Part shown: positions 4,884 through 28,654 of the stretch, piece by piece
How the letters are laid out: each line of letters begins with the position of its first letter
Position numbering within the stretch: position 1 is the stretch's first letter
Source of the DNA: Myxococcales bacterium
GTDB taxonomy: Bacteria > Myxococcota > Myxococcia > Myxococcales > 40CM-4-68-19
DNA length: 58,046 nt
NCBI GenBank assembly: GCA_045802855.1
Contig: JBJMQD010000036.1
Span: 1 to 58,046, forward strand
Reading direction: 5' to 3'
Program-made: the position numbers and the translations under genes
The notes under the pieces: generated by a model
Database searches by the model: none
Told to the model about the DNA's origin: nothing
Seen by the model: the letters and a program-made list of their open reading frames with translations, nothing else

Positions 4884-8336
<3,453 letters not shown>

Positions 8337-16309: not shown

Positions 16310-17109
16310 GGCGAATCGGGCTCCGGCGGCGGGCGGGCCTCCGCCCACTGCGCGCGCGTCGGCCGGAGCGTGACGTCGATCTGTTGCCCGACCGACGCGG
16401 AGACCTCGGCGCTGCAGGGCAGCGTGTCGCAGGAGAGCTTCGCGTTCGTGACCGGCCCCGGCGCCCCCCGCGGCAGCTCCGGGCGGACGAGGCCTATGCG
16501 GCAGCGAGCGCCGTGCGGAATCCAGAGCGTCGCGCGCCCGTCGAGTACACCGGCGCGCGCCTCCCAGCTTTCGCCGCCCGCGCAGACCGCCCGCACCGCG
16601 GCGGCGGCCCGTATGCCTCGTTCGGGACGGACGACCTCCACCAGGGCGCGCCCCGGACGCTCGAACGTCGCGACCCAGGTAGCCGGCTTTCTCGCGATCA
16701 CCGTCGCGTACCCGCGCTGCACGTCGGCGAAGTACCGCGCCGGAGGCTGGACGTCGCACCGCCATGCGCCCTTCGCGAGGCCAGGCCACTTCGCCTCTCC
16801 GAAGACGTCGCTCAGGCCCGCGAACTCCTTCCCGTCCGGTCCGGTGCATCTGACCCGCGCATCGATGACTGGATTACGCGCGTCGTCCACCACCTGGACC
16901 ACGAGCGGCCCCGGATTCTGGACGACGAGCCACAGGATCACCGCGATGAGCGCGAAGACCACCGCGACGACCGCACCCTCGAGCCACCCGGGGACGCGGC
17001 TCGCGAACCGCGGCTCGAATGTGCCCAGCGACCCGGCGGCATCTCCGTATGCTCTGGTCCGTGGCCTACGGGCGTCGCGAGCGGAGCCCGCTCGTCCGAT
17101 TCCGATCAC
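16306..17109 (-). CDS. Membrane-anchored hypothetical protein (N-terminal TM helix, Cys-containing beta-rich ectodomain)
   Basis: GTG 17109 overlaps the queD stop as GTGA. The TM segment is GAVVAVVFALIAVILWLVV. The remainder is beta-rich with 6 Cys. It was trimmed from a 655-aa track ORF. Confidence 0.6.
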   Translation of the reverse strand: MIGIGRAGSARDARRPRTRAYGDAAGSLGTFEPRFASRVPGWLEGAVVAVVFALIAVILWLVVQNPGPLVVQVVDDARNPVIDARVRCTGPDGKEFAGLSDVFGEAKWPGLAKGAWRCDVQPPARYFADVQRGYATVIARKPATWVATFERPGRALVEVVRPERGIRAAAAVRAVCAGGESWEARAGVLDGRATLWIPHGARCRIGLVRPELPRGAPGPVTNAKLSCDTLPCSAEVSASVGQQIDVTLRPTRAQWAEARPPPEPDSP

Positions 17110-17486
17110 GGCACGTACTCGGCGCGGTTGTTCTCGGTCTCGAAGACCTCCACGCGGCAGATGCGGACCCGGTCGTCGTCCAGCTCGCGAGCAAGCTCCT
17201 CGCAGAAGAACCGGGCCAGCTCTTCCGCGGTGGGGTTGCGCCCCCCCTCCTGAAACGGCTCGATCTCGTTGATGTTGCCGTGATCGAAGCGCGCCGCCGC
17301 CGCGACTGCCGTCTTCTTCAGACGGGCGAAGTCGAGGACGTAGCTCGTGCGATCGAGCCGCGTCGCCTCGGCGTGCACCACCAGCCGGTAGTTGTGCCCG
17401 TGCAGGTTCTCGCAGCGGTCCTCGGAGAGGCGCACCTGGTGCGCCGCGCAGAACCACAGCTGCTTGCTCACGCGGTAGACGCCCAC
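17106..17486 (-). CDS. queD: 6-carboxy-5,6,7,8-tetrahydropterin synthase
   Basis: 126 aa, with CAAHQ...HGHNY Zn/catalytic motifs and DFARLK. Confidence 0.85.
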   Translation of the reverse strand: MGVYRVSKQLWFCAAHQVRLSEDRCENLHGHNYRLVVHAEATRLDRTSYVLDFARLKKTAVAAAARFDHGNINEIEPFQEGGRNPTAEELARFFCEELARELDDDRVRICRVEVFETENNRAEYVP

Positions 17487-17510: not shown

Positions 17511-18194
17511 CTATGCTGCCTCGTGCAGCTCGCGCAGGAATGACCAGCGCACGAGGACCTGCTTCCCCTCGACCTCGAGGAGTCCGCGCCGGGTGAACTC
17601 GCTCAGCGCCCTGGAAACTGTCTCTCTGCTGGTTCCGACCAGGCCGGCGATCTCCTGCTGCGTCGGGCGCTCGCGGATGAGGATGCCTCCGTCCACCTGC
17701 TCTCCCTGCTTGAGCGCGAGCTCGCGGACGACGCGGGCCACACGCGCGTAGACGTCGAGGAGCGCGAGGTTGCCGATCACCTCGTCGGCATGGCGGAGGC
17801 GGCGGGACATCTCGGCCAGGATGGCGAGAGCGGTGGACGGGTTCGCGAGGAGGTGCTGGTGGAAGGCGTCCCGGTCGAGCGTGAGGAGCTGGGTCTCGGC
17901 CACCGCGACGACGTTGGCGGAGCGGGGCTGCCGATCGAAGAGCGACATCTCGCCGAAGAAGTCGCCCGCCTTGAGCATGCTGAGGATGATCTCCCGGCCG
18001 GTCTGGCCGTAGAGCACGACCTTCACCTTGCCGGAGGCGATCACGTACATCGAGTCGCCCGCCTCCTCGGCGCTGACGATCACGGTGCCGGCCTCGACGG
18101 TGCGGGGACGCATCCGGGCGCCCAGATCGGCCAGGACGGGAGGCTCGAGCTCGCGGAAGATCGCGACCTTTTGCAAGAGGACCGTAGGTTCCAC
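17511..18194 (-). CDS. Crp/Fnr-family transcriptional regulator (cNMP-binding + HTH)
   Basis: FGEMSLFDRQPRSANV is the cNMP-binding signature, and the C-terminal HTH is QQEIAGLVGTSRETVSRAL. The start is placed at GTG 18194, which has GGAGGA 6 nt upstream. Confidence 0.85.
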   Translation of the reverse strand: MEPTVLLQKVAIFRELEPPVLADLGARMRPRTVEAGTVIVSAEEAGDSMYVIASGKVKVVLYGQTGREIILSMLKAGDFFGEMSLFDRQPRSANVVAVAETQLLTLDRDAFHQHLLANPSTALAILAEMSRRLRHADEVIGNLALLDVYARVARVVRELALKQGEQVDGGILIRERPTQQEIAGLVGTSRETVSRALSEFTRRGLLEVEGKQVLVRWSFLRELHEAA

Positions 18195-18251
18195 GCGGCT
18201 TCCTCCGAAACGAGCAGTCTGACACTGCACCTGCTACCCAGACAAGCACAC

Positions 18252-19318: not shown

Positions 19319-19923
19319 TCCGGCTGTATCTCGTCACCGATCGCCGCCTCGTTTCCGATCTCCCCTCCGCGGTCCGGGCGGCCCTCTCGGGCATTCCGCC
19401 CGGCACCGCCGCGGTCCAGCTCCGGGAGAAGGATCTTCCCGCCGCGCGTCTGCTCGATCTCGCGCGGCAGCTCGTTCCCATCTGCAGGGCCGCCTCCGCT
19501 CCGCTCCTGGTGAACGACAGGGCGGACGTGGCCCTCGCGGCGGGCGCGGACGGCGTCCATCTGCCGTCGCAGGGGATTCCGGTCGCGCAGGCCCGCTCGC
19601 TCCTGGGCCGGGGAAAGCTCGTCGGGGCGAGCTGCCACACGCCGGCGGAGATCGCGGATGCCCACGCGGCGGACGCCGATTTCGCGCTCTTCGGGCCCGT
19701 CTGGGAGTCGCCGGGGAAGACCGCCCAGGGACTCGCGGCGCTGAAGGGCGCTGTTCGCGCGTCTCCCCTGCCCGTTCTCGCCATCGGCGGGGTCACTCCC
19801 GAGACGGCGAGGCTGGCGATCGACGCCGGAGCAGCGGGAGTCGCTTGCATCCGGGCGGTCCTGGGGGCTCTCGATCCGGCCGCCGCCGCCCGGGACCTTC
19901 ATCTGGCGATGACGACGGACTAG
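19315..19923 (+). CDS. thiE: Thiamine-phosphate synthase
   Basis: GTG 19315 overlaps the thiG stop as GTGA. It carries [20 protein letters not shown] and AIGGV motifs. Confidence 0.85.
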
Positions 19924-20813
19924 CGCTTCGCGAGATTGGGGCGCTCCGCGAGAGCCTGGAGGAGCTTCGCCACCGCCTCGTCCGGGGTCTGCGCGTCCAT
20001 CACGTGCTGCTTGTAGAGGTTCCGTCCGCCGACCATCTCGGCCGCCCCGCCCGTCTCCGGCAGCGCCACCACGGGCTTTCCGTCGCGAAGGAGAAGCCCG
20101 ATCTCGCTCAGCGTCCCCCCGCCGCCGCCCACGACGATCGCGCCGTCTACGGCCATCGCCACCAGCGCCGCCTGGGCCTGCCCGACTCCCGTCGGAATGG
20201 GCAGGTCGATCCAGGCATTTGCCTCGTGGCGTGCGGGACCCGGCAGGATTCCGACCACGATCCCTTCGCCCTCCGCCTCCCGGTAGCCGCGAGCGGCGCC
20301 TTCCATGCATCCGCCGAGGCCACCGCAGACGAGGTGCGCGCCCGCGCGAGCGAGAGCTGCCCCTACCTCCCTGGCGGCCTCGTCGGTGCGGGGATCCTCG
20401 AGACCTCCGCCGATCACCGCCAGCACCAGCTTCTGCCGGACGGGCGACAGAGCGCGCTTGGGCGGAAGCATGCGGGAGCGTGCATCCGCGAACGTCTCCT
20501 CGGTCTCGTGGCGCAGCGCAATGGCGTCGAGGAGGAGGTCCTCCGCGAGCGGTTCGTCGGCGCATTCGACGCGCTTTTCCAGGTCGCGGGCCATCTCCCC
20601 GATCTCGGCGAACCCGAAAGTGCCCGCCGAGCCGGCGAGCTTGTGGAGCGCGCCCCGGAGCGCGTCTTTCGAGCCTGCGCCTCCTTGGCGGGCGGAGGAG
20701 ATGGCGGCCGACAGCTTCGCGAGCCGCTCGTTCGCACCAGCCAGATAGTGCTCGAGCAATTCGCGGTCCTCCGCTACCAGGTCCGCGGTATCGCGCTTTT
20801 CGTCGAATGCCAT
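19920..20813 (-). CDS. HPt (histidine phosphotransfer) domain fused to a LOG/TIGR00725-family (SLOG) Rossmann domain
   Basis: The N-terminal four-helix HPt signature is LHKLAGSAGTFGF. The C-terminal half carries GGLGGCMEGAARG and GGGGGTLSEI (GGxGT-x2-E), typical of LOG/lysine-decarboxylase-like proteins. ATG 20813 lies 10 nt after the kinase stop. Confidence 0.75.
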   Translation of the reverse strand: MAFDEKRDTADLVAEDRELLEHYLAGANERLAKLSAAISSARQGGAGSKDALRGALHKLAGSAGTFGFAEIGEMARDLEKRVECADEPLAEDLLLDAIALRHETEETFADARSRMLPPKRALSPVRQKLVLAVIGGGLEDPRTDEAAREVGAALARAGAHLVCGGLGGCMEGAARGYREAEGEGIVVGILPGPARHEANAWIDLPIPTGVGQAQAALVAMAVDGAIVVGGGGGTLSEIGLLLRDGKPVVALPETGGAAEMVGGRNLYKQHVMDAQTPDEAVAKLLQALAERPNLAKR

Positions 20814-20823
20814 CCCGGAAATG

Positions 20824-22542
20824 CTAGGCCTCGGATCGTTCGACCGGGAGGGTGAAGAAGAACGTCGCGCCCTTGCCGGGCTCGCTTTCCACCCCGATCT
20901 CGCCCCCGTGGGCAAGGACCAGCGCCCGGCAGATGGCAAGGCCGAGGCCGGTGCCTTCCTGCTCCCGGCGGGCCCGGTCGGACTGCGCGAAACGGGTGAA
21001 GAGCTTCGCGCGGAAATCTTCGGGGATCCCGGGCCCCCGATCGCGCACCTCGAAGCGGACGACGTTGCCCTTCTGCTCGACGAGGAGATCGACCGACCCC
21101 GCCTTCGGAGAGAACTTCAGCGCGTTCGAGAGGAGATTCGTGAGCACCTGGACGATGCGATCGCCGTCGGCGCGCACCGGCGGCAGCCCGTCCGCAAGGG
21201 CGCTCTTGACCGTGACCCCTACCTTCTTGGCGAACCCGTCGATGCCCTGGACGGCCTCGGCGCAGAGTGCCGCCACGTCGGTCGGGGCAGGATCGAGCTC
21301 GAGCCGTCCCGCTTCGATCTTGCTCACGTCGAGGATGTCGTTCACCAGCCGTACCAGACGGTCGGCGTTCCGCTTCGTCACCTCGACGAGCTCGCGGGTT
21401 TCCTCGTCGAGCGAGGAGCCGTCGAGGACCAGCGCCATCGAGCCTTTGATGCTGGTGAGCGGCGTGCGCAGCTCGTGGGACACCGTCGAGATGAACTCGG
21501 ACTTCATCCGATCCACCTCGTGGGCGTTCGTCACGTCGTCGAAGACGACCATCGAGCCGACCACCTCGCCTCCGGCGCCGAGGGCGGCGGTGGAGTAGCG
21601 GCGGAAGATGCGCGGCTTCGGTTCGCCGGGCAGGTTCACCGAGATCTCACGGTCCTCGTCGTCAGTCTGGCCGAGCGATAGTTCTCCTGACGCGACCAGC
21701 GGGCGGAGGACATCTTCGAGGAGCCCGATGGGCGCTCCCACCACTTCGCGGTCGCCGAGCGCGAACAGGTTCCGGAAGGAGCGGTTCACGACCGCCGCGC
21801 GACCGCCGCGGTCGACGAGCACGATCCCGCTGCGGGACGCCTCGACGAGCGCTTCGAGCTGGCGGGACACCGCCTGCGACCGCGCGCTCTGCTCGCGCAC
21901 GTCCTCGATCAATTTGGCGCCGGCGATCGCGGTCGCCGCGTGACGGGCGAGGATGCGCAAGGCCTCGAGCACCTCGTCGCGGAGCGGCTCGCGGCTCCAC
22001 ATCGCCACCACGCCGAGGAGCCGTCCTTCATGGACCAGAGGGTGCCCCGAGAACGACCGCAGCCGCTCGATGCGGGCCCAGTCGGGATCGGCGAGCCCCG
22101 GCTCCGAACCGAGGTCGTCGGTCGCGACCATTCCGCCGTAGGCGGCGACGCGGCCGACGGAGAAGTCGCCGATCGGCACCCGTGCGAGCACCCGATCGAG
22201 CGGCCCGAGCCCGCCGTGCTCGACGAGGTGCAAGCACTGCTTCCGCGAGTGGCAGCGGTGCGCCATCTCGCAGGAGCCGCAGCGATCCGGCTCTCCCACG
22301 AGCCACACCCGCGCGCAGGCGGCACCGAAGCTCCGGGTGAGCGCGTCGGTCACGGCGGCGAGGATGCGCTCGCGCTGGAAGGCGCTGGCGACGCTCTCGG
22401 TAACCTGGACCGCGGCGCGGAGCGCGCGGACCGTCGCCTGCAGCCGCGCCTTCTCGAGCTCGAGATCCTCGCTGGTCGGTTCCGCCGGAAGGATGGCGAG
22501 CCGCCTGCGGACGGAATCCTTGTCGACCGCGCGTGCGCTCAC
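20824..22542 (-). CDS. Soluble sensor histidine kinase (coiled coil-GAF-PAS-HisKA-HATPase_c)
   Basis: The H-box is FISTVSHELRTPLTSI, the N-box is LTNLLSNALKFS, and G-boxes are DRGPGIP and GTGLGLAI. There is no TM segment. A GAF-like region with a Cys-rich insert precedes a PAS-like region. GTG 22542 overlaps the REC stop as GTGA. Confidence 0.9.
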   Translation of the reverse strand: MSARAVDKDSVRRRLAILPAEPTSEDLELEKARLQATVRALRAAVQVTESVASAFQRERILAAVTDALTRSFGAACARVWLVGEPDRCGSCEMAHRCHSRKQCLHLVEHGGLGPLDRVLARVPIGDFSVGRVAAYGGMVATDDLGSEPGLADPDWARIERLRSFSGHPLVHEGRLLGVVAMWSREPLRDEVLEALRILARHAATAIAGAKLIEDVREQSARSQAVSRQLEALVEASRSGIVLVDRGGRAAVVNRSFRNLFALGDREVVGAPIGLLEDVLRPLVASGELSLGQTDDEDREISVNLPGEPKPRIFRRYSTAALGAGGEVVGSMVVFDDVTNAHEVDRMKSEFISTVSHELRTPLTSIKGSMALVLDGSSLDEETRELVEVTKRNADRLVRLVNDILDVSKIEAGRLELDPAPTDVAALCAEAVQGIDGFAKKVGVTVKSALADGLPPVRADGDRIVQVLTNLLSNALKFSPKAGSVDLLVEQKGNVVRFEVRDRGPGIPEDFRAKLFTRFAQSDRARREQEGTGLGLAICRALVLAHGGEIGVESEPGKGATFFFTLPVERSEA

Positions 22543-22910
22543 GACGCCCCAAGGACGCCGTTCACCTCGGCGAGCAGTTCCTTCGGCTCGAACGGCTTGG
22601 TCAGGTAGCGCGTGGCTCCCAGCCGGAGCCCCTCGTCCACCTCGTCCTTCTGCGCCTTGGCGGTGAGGAACACGAACGGAGTCGCGGCGCGCGCGTCGCG
22701 CTTGCGCACCTCGGCGAGCGTCTCGATGCCGCTCATCTCCGGCATCATCCGATCGCAGAGGATGAGGTCGCAGGCCGCGCCCGTGTCGAGATAGGCGAGC
22801 GCCGCCCTGCCGCCCTCAGCCAGAGCGACCTCGTGGTTCCCGCGCTTCAAGGCGAGGCGGGCCACGAAGCGGATGTCGGAGTCGTCGTCGATTACCAGGA
22901 TGCGGGCCAT
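22539..22910 (-). CDS. Single-domain (CheY-like) response regulator
   Basis: 123 aa, with ILVIDDD, LILCDRMMPEMSG, LTA and KPF motifs. Confidence 0.9.
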   Translation of the reverse strand: MARILVIDDDSDIRFVARLALKRGNHEVALAEGGRAALAYLDTGAACDLILCDRMMPEMSGIETLAEVRKRDARAATPFVFLTAKAQKDEVDEGLRLGATRYLTKPFEPKELLAEVNGVLGAS

Positions 22911-22919
22911 GTCGGTCCT

Positions 22920-24065
22920 TCAGACAGCGAGCAAATCGAGCAGGGTCTTGCGATGGAGGGGTTTCTTCAAGAAGCCGTCCGCGCCGCAGCGGCGCGCCTC
23001 GGAACGGAGATCTTCGTCGTCCGCGGCGCTGACGACGTACATCCGCGCTGCGCAGTTGCGCACGTCCGCGGAGAGGCGGCGCAAGAGGTCGATCCCGTTC
23101 ATGCCGGGCATGAAGATGTCGACGAGGACGAGATCGTAGGAGCCGCCCGGGGGCAGCGCCTGCCGCAGCTTCGAGGAGTCCTGCACGGCGTCAACCACCG
23201 CGCCCGCAGAGGCGAGCACCGACCGGCAATACCCGAGCACGTCGTCGTCGTCGTCGACCACCAGGACGTGGGGGCGCTTCGCTGGCGCCGGCGTGGCGAC
23301 CGAGAGGAGATTGATCCCGCTCGCGGGGTTCTTCGCCGGACCGGGCAGCGGAACGGGCTCGTCGCGGCGCTTCGACAGGCCGACCAGCGCGAGGAGGTTC
23401 ACGCGGTGGATGGGCTTCGTCAGCCACCCGTCCGCACCCATCTGCGCTGCCTTGCGGACCATGTCGGGGTCGTGCGCGGCGGTCATCATGCAGATGGGGA
23501 GATCCGCTCCGTAGTGCTGCCGGAGCAGGTAGCAAGCCGCGAGGCCGTCGATCTCCGGCATGCGAACGTCGAGGAGGACGAGGTCGTACTCGCCTCCCGG
23601 CGGATGGCGCAGGAGGTCCTTGGGATCCGAGACGCAGGTCACCGAGCATCCCGCGCCCTCGAGGATCCGCCGGATGAGGGCGAGGATGTCGGCGTCGTCG
23701 TCCACCACGAGGACGCGCTTGCGCGGCGCCTCCTTCGCCGGGGCGGCGCCGAGAAGGGGGCGCAGGTCGCGCTCGAGCGAGACGTGATCGAGCGGCCTGC
23801 GCAGACAGGCGTCCGCGCCCCGTCCGGGAGCGTCGCCGACCATGGCGACGCGGACCGCGGGAAGCCGGTCCTTCGTCCTTCGAGCCGCGTCGGCTCCGCC
23901 TGCCTCGTCGAGAACGACCACGTCCGGCGAGAGCGCGGCGAGGGCGTCGAGACCTTTGCGGTGGTCGAGCGAGCGCGACGCGATCCCCTGCGTGGAGAGG
24001 AAGTAGCGCAGGAAGGCCTGTTCGGCCGGATGCTCGTTCAGGAGTACGACGTTCGGATGGCGCAC
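22920..24065 (-). CDS. Triple receiver-domain protein (one degenerate + two canonical REC domains, no output domain)
   Basis: Two canonical REC domains are present (VLVVDDDADIL...LVLLDVRMPEIDG...TKP and VLVVDDDDDVL...LVLVDIFMPGMNG...KKP). They are preceded by a REC-like domain lacking the acidic pair (VVLLNEHP). The start is placed at GTG 24065, which has GAGG upstream. The longer track ORF overlaps recO. Confidence 0.75.
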   Translation of the reverse strand: MRHPNVVLLNEHPAEQAFLRYFLSTQGIASRSLDHRKGLDALAALSPDVVVLDEAGGADAARRTKDRLPAVRVAMVGDAPGRGADACLRRPLDHVSLERDLRPLLGAAPAKEAPRKRVLVVDDDADILALIRRILEGAGCSVTCVSDPKDLLRHPPGGEYDLVLLDVRMPEIDGLAACYLLRQHYGADLPICMMTAAHDPDMVRKAAQMGADGWLTKPIHRVNLLALVGLSKRRDEPVPLPGPAKNPASGINLLSVATPAPAKRPHVLVVDDDDDVLGYCRSVLASAGAVVDAVQDSSKLRQALPPGGSYDLVLVDIFMPGMNGIDLLRRLSADVRNCAARMYVVSAADDEDLRSEARRCGADGFLKKPLHRKTLLDLLAV

Positions 24066-24141
24066 GATGACCTCGGGATGGCCCCGGACTGATCGGCCCG
24101 CCACCGGATCCCTTGAGCACCGATCGGAGCTGGGGGCCGGA

Positions 24142-24936
24142 TCAGGGCGGAGCGCCCACCTGCGCCGAGAAACGCATGCTGCGCGGGCTGCGACCGAGAT
24201 GATGTGCGACGAACGCGGAGAGCGCCCGCGCCGCCTCACCCGCGGCCTCCTCGAAAGCGCGGGGGTCGGCAGGCCTGCCGGAGCCGTCGGCGGAAAGGGG
24301 CGCCTGCGCGCCGGCCATCCCACGCCGCTGCAGTTGCACGAGCGCGGCGCGGGCCCCACCGGTGAGCGCGAGGGCAGAGGGGTGCGCGCAGCGCGCACAG
24401 CAAAGGCCGCCCGCGTCCGGATCGAAGGCCGCGCGACCCGGCGCGACGCGCGTGCCGCAGCGGGCGCATCCGGAAAGCTCGGGCGCGAGTCCCGCGGCAT
24501 CGAGCGCGCCGAGCTCGAACGCGCGGAGGAGCGCGCTGGTCGGTTCCGAGGCGCAGAGCCGGGCCAGGAACTCCTCGAGGAGAGCGAAGAGACGATCCGC
24601 GGGTTGCGACGGGCGCGTCAGGTCGTGGAGCAGCTCCGCCGCGTAGCCGGCGTGGGCGATGCGGTGCAGGTGCTCGCGCAGGGCCGGATGCGCCTCGACG
24701 ACCGAGGCCTCGCGCAGCATCCACAGCTCCTGGCCAGAGCGTTCGTGGAGGAGGACCTCGAGGCGCTGGAACGGCTCCAGCGCCCCGGCGAAGCGCTTGC
24801 CCGCGGGACGCGCGCCCCGGGCGAAGGCGGCTACCCGGCCGCGTCCCCGCACGAGGAGGTGCACGACGAGGTCGCGCTCGCCGTACGGGTGCGTCCGGAG
24901 CACGAAGGCCTCTAGCCGTTCGGCGCGGGTGTCCAC
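24142..24936 (-). CDS. recO: DNA repair protein RecO
   Basis: The N-terminal OB-fold pattern is AFVLRTHPYGERDLVVHLL, and the zinc-finger-like motif is CARCG...CCARC. 264 aa. Confidence 0.85.
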   Translation of the reverse strand: MDTRAERLEAFVLRTHPYGERDLVVHLLVRGRGRVAAFARGARPAGKRFAGALEPFQRLEVLLHERSGQELWMLREASVVEAHPALREHLHRIAHAGYAAELLHDLTRPSQPADRLFALLEEFLARLCASEPTSALLRAFELGALDAAGLAPELSGCARCGTRVAPGRAAFDPDAGGLCCARCAHPSALALTGGARAALVQLQRRGMAGAQAPLSADGSGRPADPRAFEEAAGEAARALSAFVAHHLGRSPRSMRFSAQVGAPP

Positions 24937-24967: not shown

Positions 24968-26170
24968 TCAGGCGCCCTTCAGGTCCTTGAGGAGGCGGTC
25001 GCACTCCGCCCGGACGTTGTCCTCGCGGGCGTCGGTGGTCTTCGCGCAGCGCTCGAACTCGTCGCGAGCGTCCTTCGCCCGGCCCTGCCGCACCAGGGTC
25101 TTCGCGTACTGGAGATGAGCGTCCGCGGCATCGGGACAGCTCGCCGCGTACTTCCCGAACGCATCGACGGCCGATGGTAGATCGTTCCGCTCGGAGTAGA
25201 TGGTGCCGAGCTGCCTCCATCCCAGGCAGTACTTCGGATTCAGCGCGAGGGCGGCCTTGATCCGCTGCACGCCCTTCTGTGCCTGCCCGGACTTGTAGAG
25301 AGCCCAGCCGAGGTTCGTCTCGGCGACCACGCGCTCGCGGTACAGATCGTTCGAGAGCGCAAGCTCGAATTCCTTGACCGCCTCCGTGTACCGGGCCTGC
25401 GTGAGGTAGAAGGCGCCCAGGTTGTTGTGGGCCTCCGCGAAATCCTTGTCGAGCTCGATCGCCTTCTTGAGCTCGGCCTCGGCTTCCTGCGGCTTCCCTA
25501 TCGAATAGGCGTAGAGAAGGCCCATCGCGTTGTGCACCTGGGGCACGGAATCGTCTTCCTCGTTCGCCTGCCGGTACTCCGTCAGGGCTCCCTGCGGGTC
25601 CCCATTCTGGAGGAGCGAAGTCCCCAGGTCGTAGTGGATCTCCGCTGCGTGGCGGCGCTGCTCGGCGCTCGGGCCGCTGCAGGCCGACAGAAGGAGCGCG
25701 AGCGGGAGCACGAAAGCCCCGAAGAGCCGCGCGATCGCTGCCAGCGAATCCTGCTGCCGCGGGATCGAGGCCTTCGACACCAACCGCTGCTGCGTCGGCG
25801 CGCGGAAGGCCGGCAGCCTCGATAGCAGCTCGTCGCGGCGCTCGGAGGAGAGGGAGGCCCACCCCGCCGAGTCGAGGATGAACCCCATGCTTTCGGCGAA
25901 GTCGAGCGCTTCCTCGACCTTCTGCGGAAGTCCTCCGTCGTCGACCACCTGGTCGGGCGTGTAGAGGACGTTGTCGCCGCTCTCCAGGAAGGTGAGCGCG
26001 ATGACGACCTCGTACCCGTGTCCCACGTGCGAGGCGACCACCGCCGCCTGCGCGGCCTGCGCCGACTTCCCGGGGACCTGCACGAGAGGCTGGTTGGTCG
26101 ACTCGTACAGGCCGACGATCGAGTCGCGGGCGACGGAGACGTGGGTCCGGGTGGGGTCCTCGTTGAACAT
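24968..26170 (-). CDS. TPR-repeat protein (PilW/PilF/Tgl-like TPR module) with ~130-aa N-terminal domain and internal lipobox-like signal anchor
   Basis: The C-terminal 230 aa are TPR repeats (AHNNLGAFYLTQARYTEAVKEFELAL...). The hydrophobic segment FGAFVLPLALLLSAC ends in a lipobox-like LSAC at residue 164. ATG 26170 overlaps the folE2 stop by 1 nt. Confidence 0.7.
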   Translation of the reverse strand: MFNEDPTRTHVSVARDSIVGLYESTNQPLVQVPGKSAQAAQAAVVASHVGHGYEVVIALTFLESGDNVLYTPDQVVDDGGLPQKVEEALDFAESMGFILDSAGWASLSSERRDELLSRLPAFRAPTQQRLVSKASIPRQQDSLAAIARLFGAFVLPLALLLSACSGPSAEQRRHAAEIHYDLGTSLLQNGDPQGALTEYRQANEEDDSVPQVHNAMGLLYAYSIGKPQEAEAELKKAIELDKDFAEAHNNLGAFYLTQARYTEAVKEFELALSNDLYRERVVAETNLGWALYKSGQAQKGVQRIKAALALNPKYCLGWRQLGTIYSERNDLPSAVDAFGKYAASCPDAADAHLQYAKTLVRQGRAKDARDEFERCAKTTDAREDNVRAECDRLLKDLKGA

Positions 26171-27123
26171 CAGCTCTTTCCTATCCGATGGCGCGGCCTT
26201 CTAGCCTCCGTCACTGGCGACGCCCCCAAAGCGGGCTCCTCGGTTGGATGCTGCGGCCTGCGGCCTCCGCGACTGGCGACGCCGGCAAAGCCCGGCTCCT
26301 CCTGCGGCGGATACGAGAACCGGGCGTAGGCGCTGTGGGCGTGGATGGACTCGAAGCTCTCCGCCGACACCTCGAACCGGGGGAACGCCGGCTGCGCCTT
26401 GAGGCGGGTACCCACCTCCCGCACCAGATCCTCGACGAACCGCGGCCGCGAGTAGGCCCGCTCCGTGACGTACTTCTCGTCGGGCCGCTTGAGCACGGCG
26501 TAGAGGTCGCAAGACGCGCACGATTCCACGAGGGAGATGAGGTCCTCGATCCAGAAGAACTTCGCGAACCAGACCTTCACCCGGATGACGCTGCGCTGGT
26601 TGTGCGCCGAGCGCTCGCTGATCGCCTTGCTGCAAGGGCAGAGGCTGGTGACCGGGACCTCCACGCCGACCCACAGGTCCGCCTTCTCCCGGGCGGCACT
26701 CATGGTCCGGACGCTGGCGCCGAACGTGCACGCATAGTCGACGAGCCCCGCGGCGCCCGTCACGGGGGCGCGCTTCTCGATGAAGTACGGAAACCGCACC
26801 GTCACGTGAGCGGCGGACGCATCGTGATCGCGCCTGAGCTCGCTGCACAGCTCGCGGAACTTGCGGATGTCGATCTCGCGCCGGTGGCGGTTGAGCAACT
26901 CGACGAAGCGGCTCATGTGCGCGCCCTTGCGCTTGTGCGGCAGCGACACGCTCATGTCGATTTCGGCGACGGTGTGCTGGATGCCCTGCTCCCGATCGCG
27001 GACGCTGATCGGATAGCGCAGCCCGGTGACGCCGGCGCGCTCCAGATCGAGCTTGCGCGGGTCCTCCTCGCTGTGCACGTCGCGCAGGGCGACGACATTC
27101 GGTAATGGTCGTTGCGCCTTCAA
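26170..27123 (-). CDS. folE2: GTP cyclohydrolase FolE2 (type IB) with ~45-aa repeat-containing C-terminal tail
   Basis: Carries KGAHMSRF, SLCPCSK, HNQRS and ESIHAHSAYA motifs. The start (TTG 27123) overlaps the PhzF-like stop as TTGA. Confidence 0.85.
   Translation of the reverse strand: MKAQRPLPNVVALRDVHSEEDPRKLDLERAGVTGLRYPISVRDREQGIQHTVAEIDMSVSLPHKRKGAHMSRFVELLNRHRREIDIRKFRELCSELRRDHDASAAHVTVRFPYFIEKRAPVTGAAGLVDYACTFGASVRTMSAAREKADLWVGVEVPVTSLCPCSKAISERSAHNQRSVIRVKVWFAKFFWIEDLISLVESCASCDLYAVLKRPDEKYVTERAYSRPRFVEDLVREVGTRLKAQPAFPRFEVSAESFESIHAHSAYARFSYPPQEEPGFAGVASRGGRRPQHPTEEPALGASPVTEARRPRHRIGKS
26193..26302. repeat. Imperfect tandem direct repeat, 2 x ~60 nt (~80% identity)
   Basis: Unit A runs 26193-26243 and unit B 26253-26302, giving a period of 60 nt. 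The shared core is gcggcct.c..gcctccg..actggcgacgcc..caaagc..ggctcctc. The repeat encodes duplicated 20-aa peptides in the FolE2 tail. Confidence 0.8.
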
Positions 27124-28025
27124 CGCACCTCCAACTCGCCGCGGACGATGACGGTTGCCGACCCGCCGACATAGGCGCGGACGGGATACGGCGGCTCGTC
27201 CGGTCGCAGGGCGATCTCAATCTTGCCCGGCCTTCCCACCTCGTCGCCCTGCAAGAAGTGGAGCCCACGAGGAAGCGCGCCGGGCAGGAGCTCCTGCAAG
27301 AGCAGCGCTAGATGCCCGCAGGCGCTTCCGGTCACCGGATCCTCGTCGATCCCATAGAAGGGAAAGAATGCGCGCAGGGCGGCGTCGATCCCAGGCTTGG
27401 GGGCGAGAGTGAAAGGAACGAATCCGGCCACCCCCAGCCGCTTGCCGATTGCGTCGAGCGGGCGCGGGTCCGGTCGCATCCGCGCGAGGGCCTCCCGGTC
27501 GCGGACGCAGAAGTAGAGGTTCCCCTCCTCGCTCTCCGCCTTGTGCGGCGGGATGCGCGGATCGAGCGCCTCCGGGACGACGTTCATGGCGGCGAGGGCG
27601 TCGGCTGGAACGGGCTGCGGCCGGAACCGCGTCGGCGGTGTCTCGAACAGGATCCGCAGGACTCCCTCGTGGCGGGAAAGCTCGACGCGCTGGACTCCGG
27701 CCTTGCACCCGAAACGGAGGTGGACGACGCCCTCGGGACCGACGGCGATCCGTTTCGCCTCGTCTACCAGCACGTGCAGCGTGGCGAGCGTCGCATGTCC
27801 GCAGAATCGCACTTCGGACAAAGGCGTGAACCAGCGCAGGTGGAAGTCGGTTCCCGCATTGCGCCGCGAGGGGACGGGGAACGCCGTTTCGCTGTGCTTC
27901 AACTCCGCGGCGATGCGCTGCATCTCTTCGGCGGAAAGGGTGGCGCCGTCGAGGACGACACCGGCGGGGTTCCCCCCGAAAGGCCGGTCGGAAAAGGCGT
28001 CCACGACGTAGCAAGGCAGTTTCAT
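27120..28025 (-). CDS. PhzF-family isomerase-like protein
   Basis: VDAFSDRPFGGNPAGVV, SETAF and RWFTPLSEVRFCGHATLA are hallmark PhzF/YddE motifs. ATG 28025 overlaps the queE stop as ATGA. Confidence 0.85.
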   Translation of the reverse strand: MKLPCYVVDAFSDRPFGGNPAGVVLDGATLSAEEMQRIAAELKHSETAFPVPSRRNAGTDFHLRWFTPLSEVRFCGHATLATLHVLVDEAKRIAVGPEGVVHLRFGCKAGVQRVELSRHEGVLRILFETPPTRFRPQPVPADALAAMNVVPEALDPRIPPHKAESEEGNLYFCVRDREALARMRPDPRPLDAIGKRLGVAGFVPFTLAPKPGIDAALRAFFPFYGIDEDPVTGSACGHLALLLQELLPGALPRGLHFLQGDEVGRPGKIEIALRPDEPPYPVRAYVGGSATVIVRGELEVR

Positions 28026-28654
28026 ACGCCCCTCGCCTCGGCTCCCCAGATGATCTTGTGCATCTGCAATTGCAAGCGCGCGGGGCGCTCGGAGGCGAGG
28101 AGCCAGCGCGCCAGGTCCTTCGGAGCGACCTCGCCGAAGCTCGGCGAGAAGAGGACCGGCACGCGGCCCCAGAGGCCGAGCCGATCGATGACCGACACCG
28201 CCCAGCGGAAGTCCGCCTCGCCGCACACGACCACCTTGAGCTCGTCTCCTTCCCCGAGCGCCTCGAGCTCGCGGAAGTCGCGGTGCTGCTCGCCGGATCC
28301 CGGGGTCTTGAGGTCGACGATCTTCTTCACCCCGCGCGGGATCTGGTCGAGCGGCCTTTGCCCGTGCGTCTCCAGGGAGACCTCGTATCCGCGCTCGAGC
28401 AGCTTCCGGCAGAGATCGGGGAGCTCCCGCTGCAGCGTAGGCTCGCCCCCCGTGAGGCAGACGAAGCGGGCCGGATGCCGCTCGACCTGGGCGAGGATCT
28501 CTGCCAACGGCAGGTCCTTCCCGCCATGGAACGCGTACTCGGTGTCGCAGTACCCGCAGCGCAGGTCACACCCGGTGAAGCGGACGAACACGCACGGCTT
28601 CCCAGCGTGGGTCGATTCGCCCTGGATGCTGAAGAAGATCTCGGTGACCCTCAC
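28022..28654 (-). CDS. queE: 7-carboxy-7-deazaguanine synthase (radical SAM)
   Basis: EIFFSIQGE, the radical-SAM cluster motif CDLRCGYCDT, and LTGGEP. 210 aa. Confidence 0.88.
   Translation of the reverse strand: MRVTEIFFSIQGESTHAGKPCVFVRFTGCDLRCGYCDTEYAFHGGKDLPLAEILAQVERHPARFVCLTGGEPTLQRELPDLCRKLLERGYEVSLETHGQRPLDQIPRGVKKIVDLKTPGSGEQHRDFRELEALGEGDELKVVVCGEADFRWAVSVIDRLGLWGRVPVLFSPSFGEVAPKDLARWLLASERPARLQLQMHKIIWGAEARGV

Follow-up and report, generated by a model that had tools for sequence, protein, structure and literature searches.

What does a histidine phosphotransfer (HPt) domain do when it is fused to a nucleotide-binding-type domain of the SLOG superfamily? The question is raised by one gene on a 58,046 nt stretch of DNA (the window) from a Myxococcales bacterium (assembly GCA_045802855.1, contig JBJMQD010000036.1), for which an earlier prediction from the sequence alone had proposed an HPt domain and a LOG/TIGR00725 domain within a single open reading frame (ORF). 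Our analysis of this protein, here called HPt-SLOG, leans modestly towards the full statement that it is a phosphorelay HPt fused to a SLOG ligand binder that is not a LOG enzyme, with the fusion coupling the two. The gene and its parts are as follows.

19920..20813, minus strand: HPt-SLOG fusion gene, 297 aa, N-terminus MAFDEKRD, final gene of the relay operon (ORF and translation, Pfam).
20469..20774, minus strand: HPt domain, helical bundle, aa 14-115 (PF01627, HPt-only AlphaFold model, Foldseek).
20643..20645, minus strand: CAC codon of His57, the predicted phospho-acceptor, in LHKLAGSAGTFGF.
19944..20435, minus strand: SLOG cluster 4 domain (TIGR00725-like, Moco-carrier-like, Rossmannoid), aa 127-290 (PF18306, PDB phmmer, Foldseek).
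20304..20327, minus strand: glycine-rich loop 1, CGGLGGCM, aa 163-170.
20169..20174, minus strand: Gln214-Ala215, at the site of the family Arg-Asn pair and of the LOG catalytic Arg-Lys.
20103..20129, minus strand: glycine-rich loop 2 with its Thr and Glu, GGGGGTLSE, aa 229-237.

The fusion is confirmed, at a level far beyond chance. Both domains scored above their Pfam gathering thresholds within the one ORF, the fusion is conserved in relatives, and all of the motifs named in the original prediction (the His57 motif LHKLAGSAGTFGF and both glycine loops) were located. An AlphaFold model of the whole protein, built with 106 homologues as input, reached a pLDDT of 87.4 and showed a five-helix N-terminal bundle, a short linker and then an alpha/beta Rossmannoid domain. 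The same two-domain layout recurs at 67-98% identity in approximately 45 protein clusters, every one from a soil metagenome, and in a further 4-5 clusters at 41-48% identity. A collection with one genome per species yielded 8 loci from 7 metagenome-assembled genomes (MAGs), all of uncultured Myxococcales or "Deltaproteobacteria". A frameshift or assembly artefact as the source of the fusion was ruled out, as the layout is common to approximately 45 independent clusters and 8 species-level MAG loci. Overall, the architecture was found only in uncultured soil Myxococcota, where the database label of the relatives is just "uncharacterized protein (TIGR00725 family)".

A profile search for divergent fusions returned only 8 proteins, and several of their contexts were short contigs. 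In two of the divergent relatives (P0123 and P0268) the N-terminal bundle is degenerate and two-component genes are missing next to the fusion; 5 kb from P0268 lies a hybrid PAS-GAF-PAS kinase that carries a receiver domain (locus L042, 605-3325). Two apparent further architectures, P0104 (an apparent HATPase-SLOG protein) and P0124, were discarded as frameshifted read-throughs from the kinase gene into HPt-SLOG, in which the alignment flips between good and garbled.

The N-terminal HPt assignment appears sound, because the fold neighbours of the model agree with the Pfam score and the His box. Pfam Hpt (PF01627) matched aa 18-102 with E = 2.2e-10 and 41 bits against a gathering score of 24.6. 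In the AlphaFold models His57 sits in the middle of a helix (residues 48-65) within the HPt bundle. The His box is of the type H-x-L-x-G-S-A-x-x-x-G, and LHKLAGSAG is nearly invariant among 45 orthologues. Modelled alone, the HPt domain gave five helices at a pLDDT of 87.8, and its Foldseek neighbours included CheA P1 (1tqg, 8c5v, 2ld6), the HPt of a Shewanella hybrid kinase (3myf), HptB (7c1i), AHP1 and the BarA HPt. The majority of the top 10 matches were HPt or CheA P1 domains, with TM scores of 0.55-0.78 and weak E-values of 0.02-0.3; weak E-values are usual for short helical bundles. The predicted N-terminal HPt bundle with a phospho-His signature was thus borne out by the family score, the His box and the fold matches.

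The C-terminal domain gave a clear family match. Pfam LDcluster4 (PF18306, SLOG cluster 4) matched aa 129-280 with E = 8.3e-31 and 107.1 bits against a gathering score of 26.3, spanning profile positions 2-150 of 151, and the NCBIfam model TIGR00725 scored 101.8 bits, narrowly below its cutoff of 106.9. In a phmmer search of the PDB the best matches were two molybdenum cofactor (Moco) carrier proteins (MCPs), that of Rippkaea (RoMCP, 6y01, E = 4.8e-17) and that of Chlamydomonas (CrMCP, 2iz5, E = 1.8e-14), followed by TM1055 (1rcu, E = 3e-10), with LOG enzymes at 1e-5 or worse. Against the Moco carriers the target-normalised Foldseek TM scores were 0.82-0.86, and against 1rcu the score was 0.81.

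We compared the domain with a family alignment of 110 stand-alone-sized proteins (140-230 aa), taken from the best 150 matches against 50%-identity cluster representatives, plus RoMCP. Both glycine loops are kept. Across 106 clade sequences, 7 of the 8 residues of loop 1 are invariant and G165 is nearly so, and among the family representatives G164, G165 and G168 are each conserved in 110/110. Loop 2 retains T234 (108/110) and E237 (110/110). The exception is the column of Gln214, which is Arg in 109/110 family representatives and is followed, at the Ala215 column, by Asn in 105/110 ('ARN', after a T-G-x-G turn). Gln214 is invariant within the clade of the window protein, and the segment 209-GVGQAQAAL-217 has no Arg or Lys. 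Stand-alone sister proteins of approximately 200 aa, about 60% identical to the SLOG domain, carry GVNSAQGAL at this segment with the same Gln. By these sequence comparisons, the window protein, its orthologues and this stand-alone sister group form an Arg-less subfamily.

Described conservatively, the SLOG domain is a divergent SLOG cluster 4 member in which the phosphate-gripping scaffold is intact and the specificity or catalytic centre is altered. Because the glycine loops, Thr234 and Glu237 are kept while the hallmark Arg-Asn pair is lost, we infer that it binds or carries some phosphorylated small molecule rather than acting as a LOG-type N-glycosidase; that the domain is a ligand binder other than LOG is, in our judgement, probable. 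That the domain can also function alone is shown by the stand-alone Gln-variant relatives of approximately 200 aa, which sit outside two-component contexts: such a context was sought around these genes and none was seen, and they lie in unrelated neighbourhoods, adjoining a GlpD-like dehydrogenase. Elsewhere, SLOG cluster 4 domains are fused, among other things, to nucleotide- and RNA-handling domains (P0136, P0146, P0170, P0173, P0177, P0237, P0243 and P0251), the partners including 2-thiouracil desulfurase, phosphoribosyltransferase, LigT 2',5'-phosphoesterase, AAA_33 kinase, RsmB methyltransferase, GNAT and 2Fe-2S ferredoxin. These fusions fit a general role of the family with nucleotide-derived ligands.

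HPt-SLOG is the last of four tightly packed minus-strand genes, in the order triple receiver (REC3), single receiver (REC1), GAF-PAS histidine kinase and HPt-SLOG. The features upstream of HPt-SLOG are listed below.

22920..24065, minus strand: REC3, triple-receiver protein without an output domain; REC-a degenerate, REC-b and REC-c canonical; probable GTG start at 24065 (Pfam: two Response_reg stretches).
22539..22910, minus strand: REC1, single-domain response regulator, 123 aa, Asp53 (PF00072, E = 5.6e-27).
20824..22542, minus strand: soluble cytoplasmic GAF-PAS-HisKA-HATPase kinase without a receiver, H-box His356 at 21475-21477 (Pfam).
22234..22281, minus strand: four-Cys insert C-x2-C-x5-C-x6-C in the kinase GAF domain, followed by LHLVEHGG, present in the window and in 7/7 orthologues examined.

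The REC1 and kinase genes overlap by 4 nt, and HPt-SLOG starts 10 nt past the kinase stop. Counting one His in the kinase, another in the HPt domain and three canonical receiver Asp sites, the operon holds the parts of a His-Asp-His-Asp relay. By Pfam, no DNA-binding or enzymatic output is encoded in it, the SLOG domain aside. The kinase H-box SHELRTPL is kept in orthologues, and the four-Cys insert could be a metal, Fe-S or redox input site of the relay. As for REC3, the mechanically called 526-aa ORF (22920-24500, minus strand) overlaps recO, the start is most likely the GTG at 24065, and the orthologue in L001 has 376 aa; REC-a lacks the acidic pair (NE...), the conserved Thr/Ser and the Lys (R instead) and has the appearance of a pseudo-receiver.

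The complete REC3-REC1-kinase-HPt-SLOG order was found in 6 related loci at 74-80% identity (L001, L008, L009, L011, L013 and L015), and on the shorter contigs L002, L010 and L012 the kinase, or the kinase and REC1, lies immediately upstream of HPt-SLOG. Among more distant relatives, one at 42% identity (L036; P0128) has the kinase upstream and thiE downstream, and another (L038; P0126) has a receiver gene overlapping its start and a SLOG domain with the canonical 'ARN'.

The strongest evidence on how the protein works came from this operon context, which the original prediction did not include, together with natural gene losses. The His box LHKLAGSAGT[YF]GF was found in the window and in 8/8 of the related kinase-retaining loci that were read (nine such loci minus L002). 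In three lineages parts of the operon are gone.

L037 (P0046): REC3, REC1 and kinase lost; His replaced by Arg, LRKLGASARGSGF; surrounding synteny intact.
L039/L040 (P0044): kinase and REC1 lost, a 236-aa two-receiver remnant kept; His replaced by Arg, LRELAGSAGDHGF; surrounding synteny intact.
L041 (P0043): deletion as in L039; His kept in a degraded box, LHELAGSAGDQGL, with a "weak" Pfam Hpt match; surrounding synteny intact.

As L039 and L041 share the deletion yet differ at the His, the deletion preceded the loss of the His. The loss in L037, whose SLOG domain is 85-88% identical to all others, appears to be independent, since L037 is a separate lineage.

Selection on the two domains was compared through the ratio of nonsynonymous to synonymous substitution rates (dN/dS), for which the values are rough pairwise Nei-Gojobori estimates from few sequences. 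The HPt ratio was 0.10-0.15 in relay-positive pairs versus 0.38 in the relay-less pair L039/L041, and the SLOG ratio was 0.04-0.08 versus 0.10 in the same pairs. We further defined invariant positions over eight relay-positive orthologues, which gave 49 in HPt and 122 in SLOG. Each of the relay-less proteins (L037, L039 and L041) had changed 10-12 of the 49 HPt positions, many of them in the His box (57, 58, 60, 61, 64, 65) and in helix A (21-23, 26). In the SLOG domain of the same proteins, 0-2 of the 122 positions were changed.

This pattern is the one expected if the adjacent kinase and receiver genes are the partners of His57 and its surface, and if the SLOG domain serves a purpose independent of the relay; the losses and the selection together thus point to separable functions of the two domains. 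Given the operon context and the decay of the His box after loss of the kinase and receiver genes, the protein is very likely a working HPt relay component.

How would the relay then run, and what would the fusion do? In the proposed mechanism, phosphate would pass from His356 of the kinase, with its four-Cys GAF and its PAS domain, to Asp53 of REC1, from there to His57 of the HPt domain, and on to REC-b and REC-c, the canonical receivers in REC3, which has no output domain. The SLOG pocket would bind a phosphorylated small molecule, and the fusion would couple this pocket to the HPt domain, so that the phosphorylation state of HPt modulates the ligand affinity, ligand release or oligomeric state of SLOG. 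What is shown are the domain identities, the conserved operon, the joint loss of relay genes and His box, the selection on each domain and the absence of the key LOG and MCP residues; how phosphate flows, that a ligand is bound and in which direction the coupling runs are inferred. The direction from HPt to SLOG is preferred because SLOG is the sole non-signalling domain in the operon and stays constrained after relay loss. The reverse direction, in which ligand occupancy gates phosphotransfer, is the main alternative. A functional coupling of the two domains, as the original prediction had proposed, is plausible in either case.

A fuller statement takes in both directions, and we offer it as a tentative possibility. 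Here HPt-SLOG would be a metabolite-coupled phosphotransfer node in which His57~P controls the binding, release or turnover of a ligand, or in which ligand occupancy sets the flux through the relay. The ligand would be phosphorylated and possibly pterin-like or nucleotide-like, and the SLOG domain would represent a new Arg-less subtype of the TIGR00725/Moco-carrier group.

Several points weigh against the proposed mechanism. The inter-domain geometry of the AlphaFold model is not confident (pTM 0.60, with 3/5 models at about 64 pLDDT), which lends no structural support to allostery. Ligand binding by SLOG is suggested solely by the conserved loops, the order of transfer among REC1, REC-b and REC-c is assumed from Spo0-type and Ypd1-type relays, and the dN/dS ratios are rough, as said. 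Several of the divergent relatives are known from single short metagenomic contigs. Finally, there are lineages in which the glycine loops have decayed beside an intact His, and in these the SLOG fold may sometimes be a scaffold only.

The last point bears on the best-surviving rival, which holds that SLOG is mainly an oligomerisation scaffold presenting two or four HPt domains, with any ligand irrelevant to the relay. Three relatives at 41-46% identity (P0125, P0128 and P0129) present the reverse of the relay-less case: they keep the His box and a region of SLOG fold length, but one or both glycine loops are gone and in P0128 the Thr and Glu as well, which would argue that the fold itself contributes something to HPt function. 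LOG proteins are dimers or hexamers. RoMCP and CrMCP are stable tetramers (PMC7470044). However, the pocket residues are invariant or nearly so in the window clade, and they stay so, at a SLOG dN/dS of about 0.1, once relay genes and His have gone, which a scaffold for HPt would leave unexplained. We therefore regard a pure scaffold as unlikely, although a partly structural, oligomerising role may exist.

A second rival makes SLOG purely a sensor of the relay, with ligand occupancy gating phosphotransfer at His57 and no function outside the relay. SLOG domains do act as ligand sensors that control fused effectors, as in ThsA and TRPM2, the latter recovered by Foldseek at low rank, and it would make sense for a relay to have a metabolite checkpoint at its HPt step. 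However, a dedicated sensor is not expected to survive the loss of its relay, and in L037, L039 and L041, where decay would be expected, 120-122 of the 122 invariant SLOG positions are kept; the stand-alone relatives outside two-component contexts also speak against it. This reading is disfavoured, and we give it little chance.

The closest structures suggest a third rival, that SLOG is a true Moco carrier and that, by way of the phosphorelay, the fusion signals or regulates how much Moco is available. RoMCP and CrMCP are the best matches in both sequence (31-33% identity) and fold, an Oxidored_molyb ORF is found two genes away from a distant relative (P0268), and pterin and 7-deazaguanine genes (FolE2, QueD and QueE-like) flank the locus. 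In the RoMCP crystal, Arg42 and Arg89 coordinate anions, and these two residues have been proposed as the site that holds the phosphate of Moco (PMC7470044). In HPt-SLOG, Arg42 is replaced by Leu166, Arg89 by Gln214 and Ser67 by Gly192, and of the residues of the proposed Moco-phosphate crevice (Arg42, Arg89 and Lys118') just Lys118 is kept in charge, as Arg243. The identity of 31-33% also stands against the 50-60% reached by the bacterial candidates with the highest identity to CrMCP (PMC9571131). The conserved neighbourhood of HPt-SLOG showed no genes of Moco biosynthesis, and the Oxidored_molyb neighbour, a 145-aa ORF at 6550-6987 of locus L042, is a single observation, the sole molybdoenzyme-related neighbour seen for any relative. 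True MCP identity was rejected on the defining residues Arg42 and Arg89, and the reading built on it is accordingly improbable. The pterin and 7-deazaguanine genes may be mere neighbours of a pterin-carrier-like SLOG domain. In the literature consulted, only a few Moco carriers were found as experimentally characterised members of TIGR00725/SLOG cluster 4, though the family is widespread, and a search on TIGR00725 and LDcluster4/PF18306 as such returned nothing relevant.

The LOG reading, under which the protein is a nucleoside-5'-monophosphate phosphoribohydrolase whose activity would be switched through phosphorylation at the His of the HPt domain fused to it, fares no better. The Rossmannoid fold and both glycine loops are common to LOG, GGGGGTLSE preserves the Thr and Glu of the PGGxGTxxE-like motif, LOG structures are recovered at lower rank by PDB phmmer and Foldseek, and the operon has no other output domain. 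However, the LOG model TIGR00730 scored 29.5 bits against a cutoff of 96.35 and NF058542 (CtkRMPhLog) 16.1 bits against 300, and PF03641 was absent from a Pfam scan of the protein that listed families up to E = 1. In CgLOGII, Ala substitution of Arg155, Lys156, Thr175 or Glu178 each abolishes activity, and the catalytic Arg and Glu are conserved across all LOG subgroups (PMC5379747). The phmmer alignment to LOG 5zi9 places Gln214 at the catalytic Arg and Ala215 at the adjacent essential Lys, in a segment (aa 209-217) with no basic residue; the Glu is kept as E237. The TM scores to type-I and CgLOGII structures were just 0.62-0.67 at 18-24% identity, and the fold is closer to the Moco carriers. 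Of the originally predicted LOG/TIGR00725 domain, then, the SLOG-superfamily Rossmannoid fold, both glycine loops, the Thr and Glu of GTLSE and the TIGR00725-like character stand; membership in LOG in the strict sense (TIGR00730/PF03641) does not, and LOG-type phosphoribohydrolase activity is very doubtful.

An anti-phage (Thoeris-like) defence system was rejected, as PADLOC gave no defence-system match for HPt-SLOG or the kinase, the ThcA model reached only E = 0.029 against HPt-SLOG, and the neighbours are housekeeping genes; a PADLOC match of REC3 to SduA, which covers just a receiver-like stretch, was discounted.

On the upstream side these neighbours, all on the strand of the operon, are RecO, a TPR protein, FolE2, PhzF, a QueE-like radical SAM enzyme and an M61 peptidase; on the downstream side thiS-thiG-thiE converge on HPt-SLOG, and beyond them lie a CRP-family regulator and QueD. 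HPt-SLOG on the minus strand and thiE on the plus strand share a CTAG palindrome at 19920-19923 in which their stop codons overlap, leaving no space for a terminator, and the convergent thiE is kept even in relatives at 42% identity (L036, L043). FolE2, the QueE-like enzyme (260 bits, below its cutoff of 300), PhzF and QueD, at 26170-28654 and 17106-17486 (both minus strand), flank the operon on both sides, and the GTP-derived pterin/7-deazaguanine genes are syntenic with the operon in L001, L037 and L041. Proteins with a cyclic-nucleotide-binding domain lie near Gln-variant SLOG genes (window 17511-18230, minus strand; L042 6987-7775; L003 10261-11484; L005 12559-13782), within a few genes and in three otherwise unrelated neighbourhoods, which may be chance. 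A scan of 19700-24300 for promoter and terminator consensus sequences found none and is uninformative at 70% GC.

Why does the fusion matter? HPt domains are usually viewed as passive phosphate shuttles, and regulation or output at the HPt step is seldom considered. The conserved HPt-SLOG fusion is a concrete, testable case for metabolic coupling inside a phosphorelay, with the HPt step as an input or output point, and in the natural deletion series each domain is seen to retain a function of its own. The fusion is also a way into the TIGR00725/SLOG cluster 4 family and flags an Arg-less subfamily whose ligand is likely to be different. If the coupled reading is true, this would be the first bacterial phosphorelay with its HPt step wired directly to a small-molecule pocket, and the Gln-variant SLOG clade would represent a ligand specificity not described before. 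If phosphorylation controls SLOG, the output of the relay would be a small-molecule-handling domain instead of a transcription factor. The practical impact is limited, as the system is confined to uncultured soil Myxococcota and known from sequence alone. Neither the architecture nor a characterised member of the clade was found in the searchable literature, which did not cover the founding SLOG classification (Burroughs et al., 2015).

Among known systems, the HPt domain resembles the stand-alone HPt proteins (Ypd1, LuxU, HptB, ShpA and the plant AHPs) and CheA P1 in its Pfam family, helical bundle, mid-helix His and kinase and receiver neighbours. Among prokaryotic two-component and phosphorelay proteins, those that are stand-alone HPt proteins, whatever their kind, usually account for <1% (PMC4558063). 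Unlike them, HPt-SLOG adds a C-terminal SLOG domain of approximately 170 aa. The operon as a whole is similar to the Bacillus KinA-Spo0F-Spo0B-Spo0A relay and to Myxococcus RedCDEF, in which a separate kinase, a single receiver, a phosphotransfer protein and further receivers are encoded together. RedCDEF is reportedly a myxobacterial precedent for an output-less multi-receiver system; it is said to lack an HPt domain, and Spo0B to have a different fold. To our knowledge, neither system has a small-molecule-binding domain on its phosphotransfer protein.

The closest solved relatives of the SLOG domain are the MCPs (RoMCP 6y01; CrMCP 2iz5-2iz7) and TM1055 (1rcu), that is, the TIGR00725/PF18306 group, with which it shares the extended Rossmannoid fold, the GG..G.M loop, the G-T-L-S-E loop and the K-P-V strand. 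It differs from the MCPs in lacking equivalents of RoMCP Arg42 and Arg89 and the family Arg-Asn pair, in scoring under the TIGR00725 cutoff, in its fusion to HPt and in having no Moco gene context. With LOG (TIGR00730/PF03641) it has the superfamily, fold, glycine-rich phosphate-binding loops and the Thr and Glu in common, but it falls far under the family cutoffs, has Gln/Ala for the catalytic Arg/Lys and is structurally less similar. A functional analogy is offered by the SLOG/STALD domain of Thoeris ThsA and the N-terminal SLOG domain of TRPM2, where a SLOG pocket for a nucleotide-derived ligand is covalently linked to a signalling or effector module. These belong to other SLOG families (STALD was absent from the Pfam scan to E = 1, and LSDAT_prok scored 17.7 bits, below cutoff), and in HPt-SLOG the partner of the SLOG domain is a phosphotransfer domain rather than an NADase or a channel.

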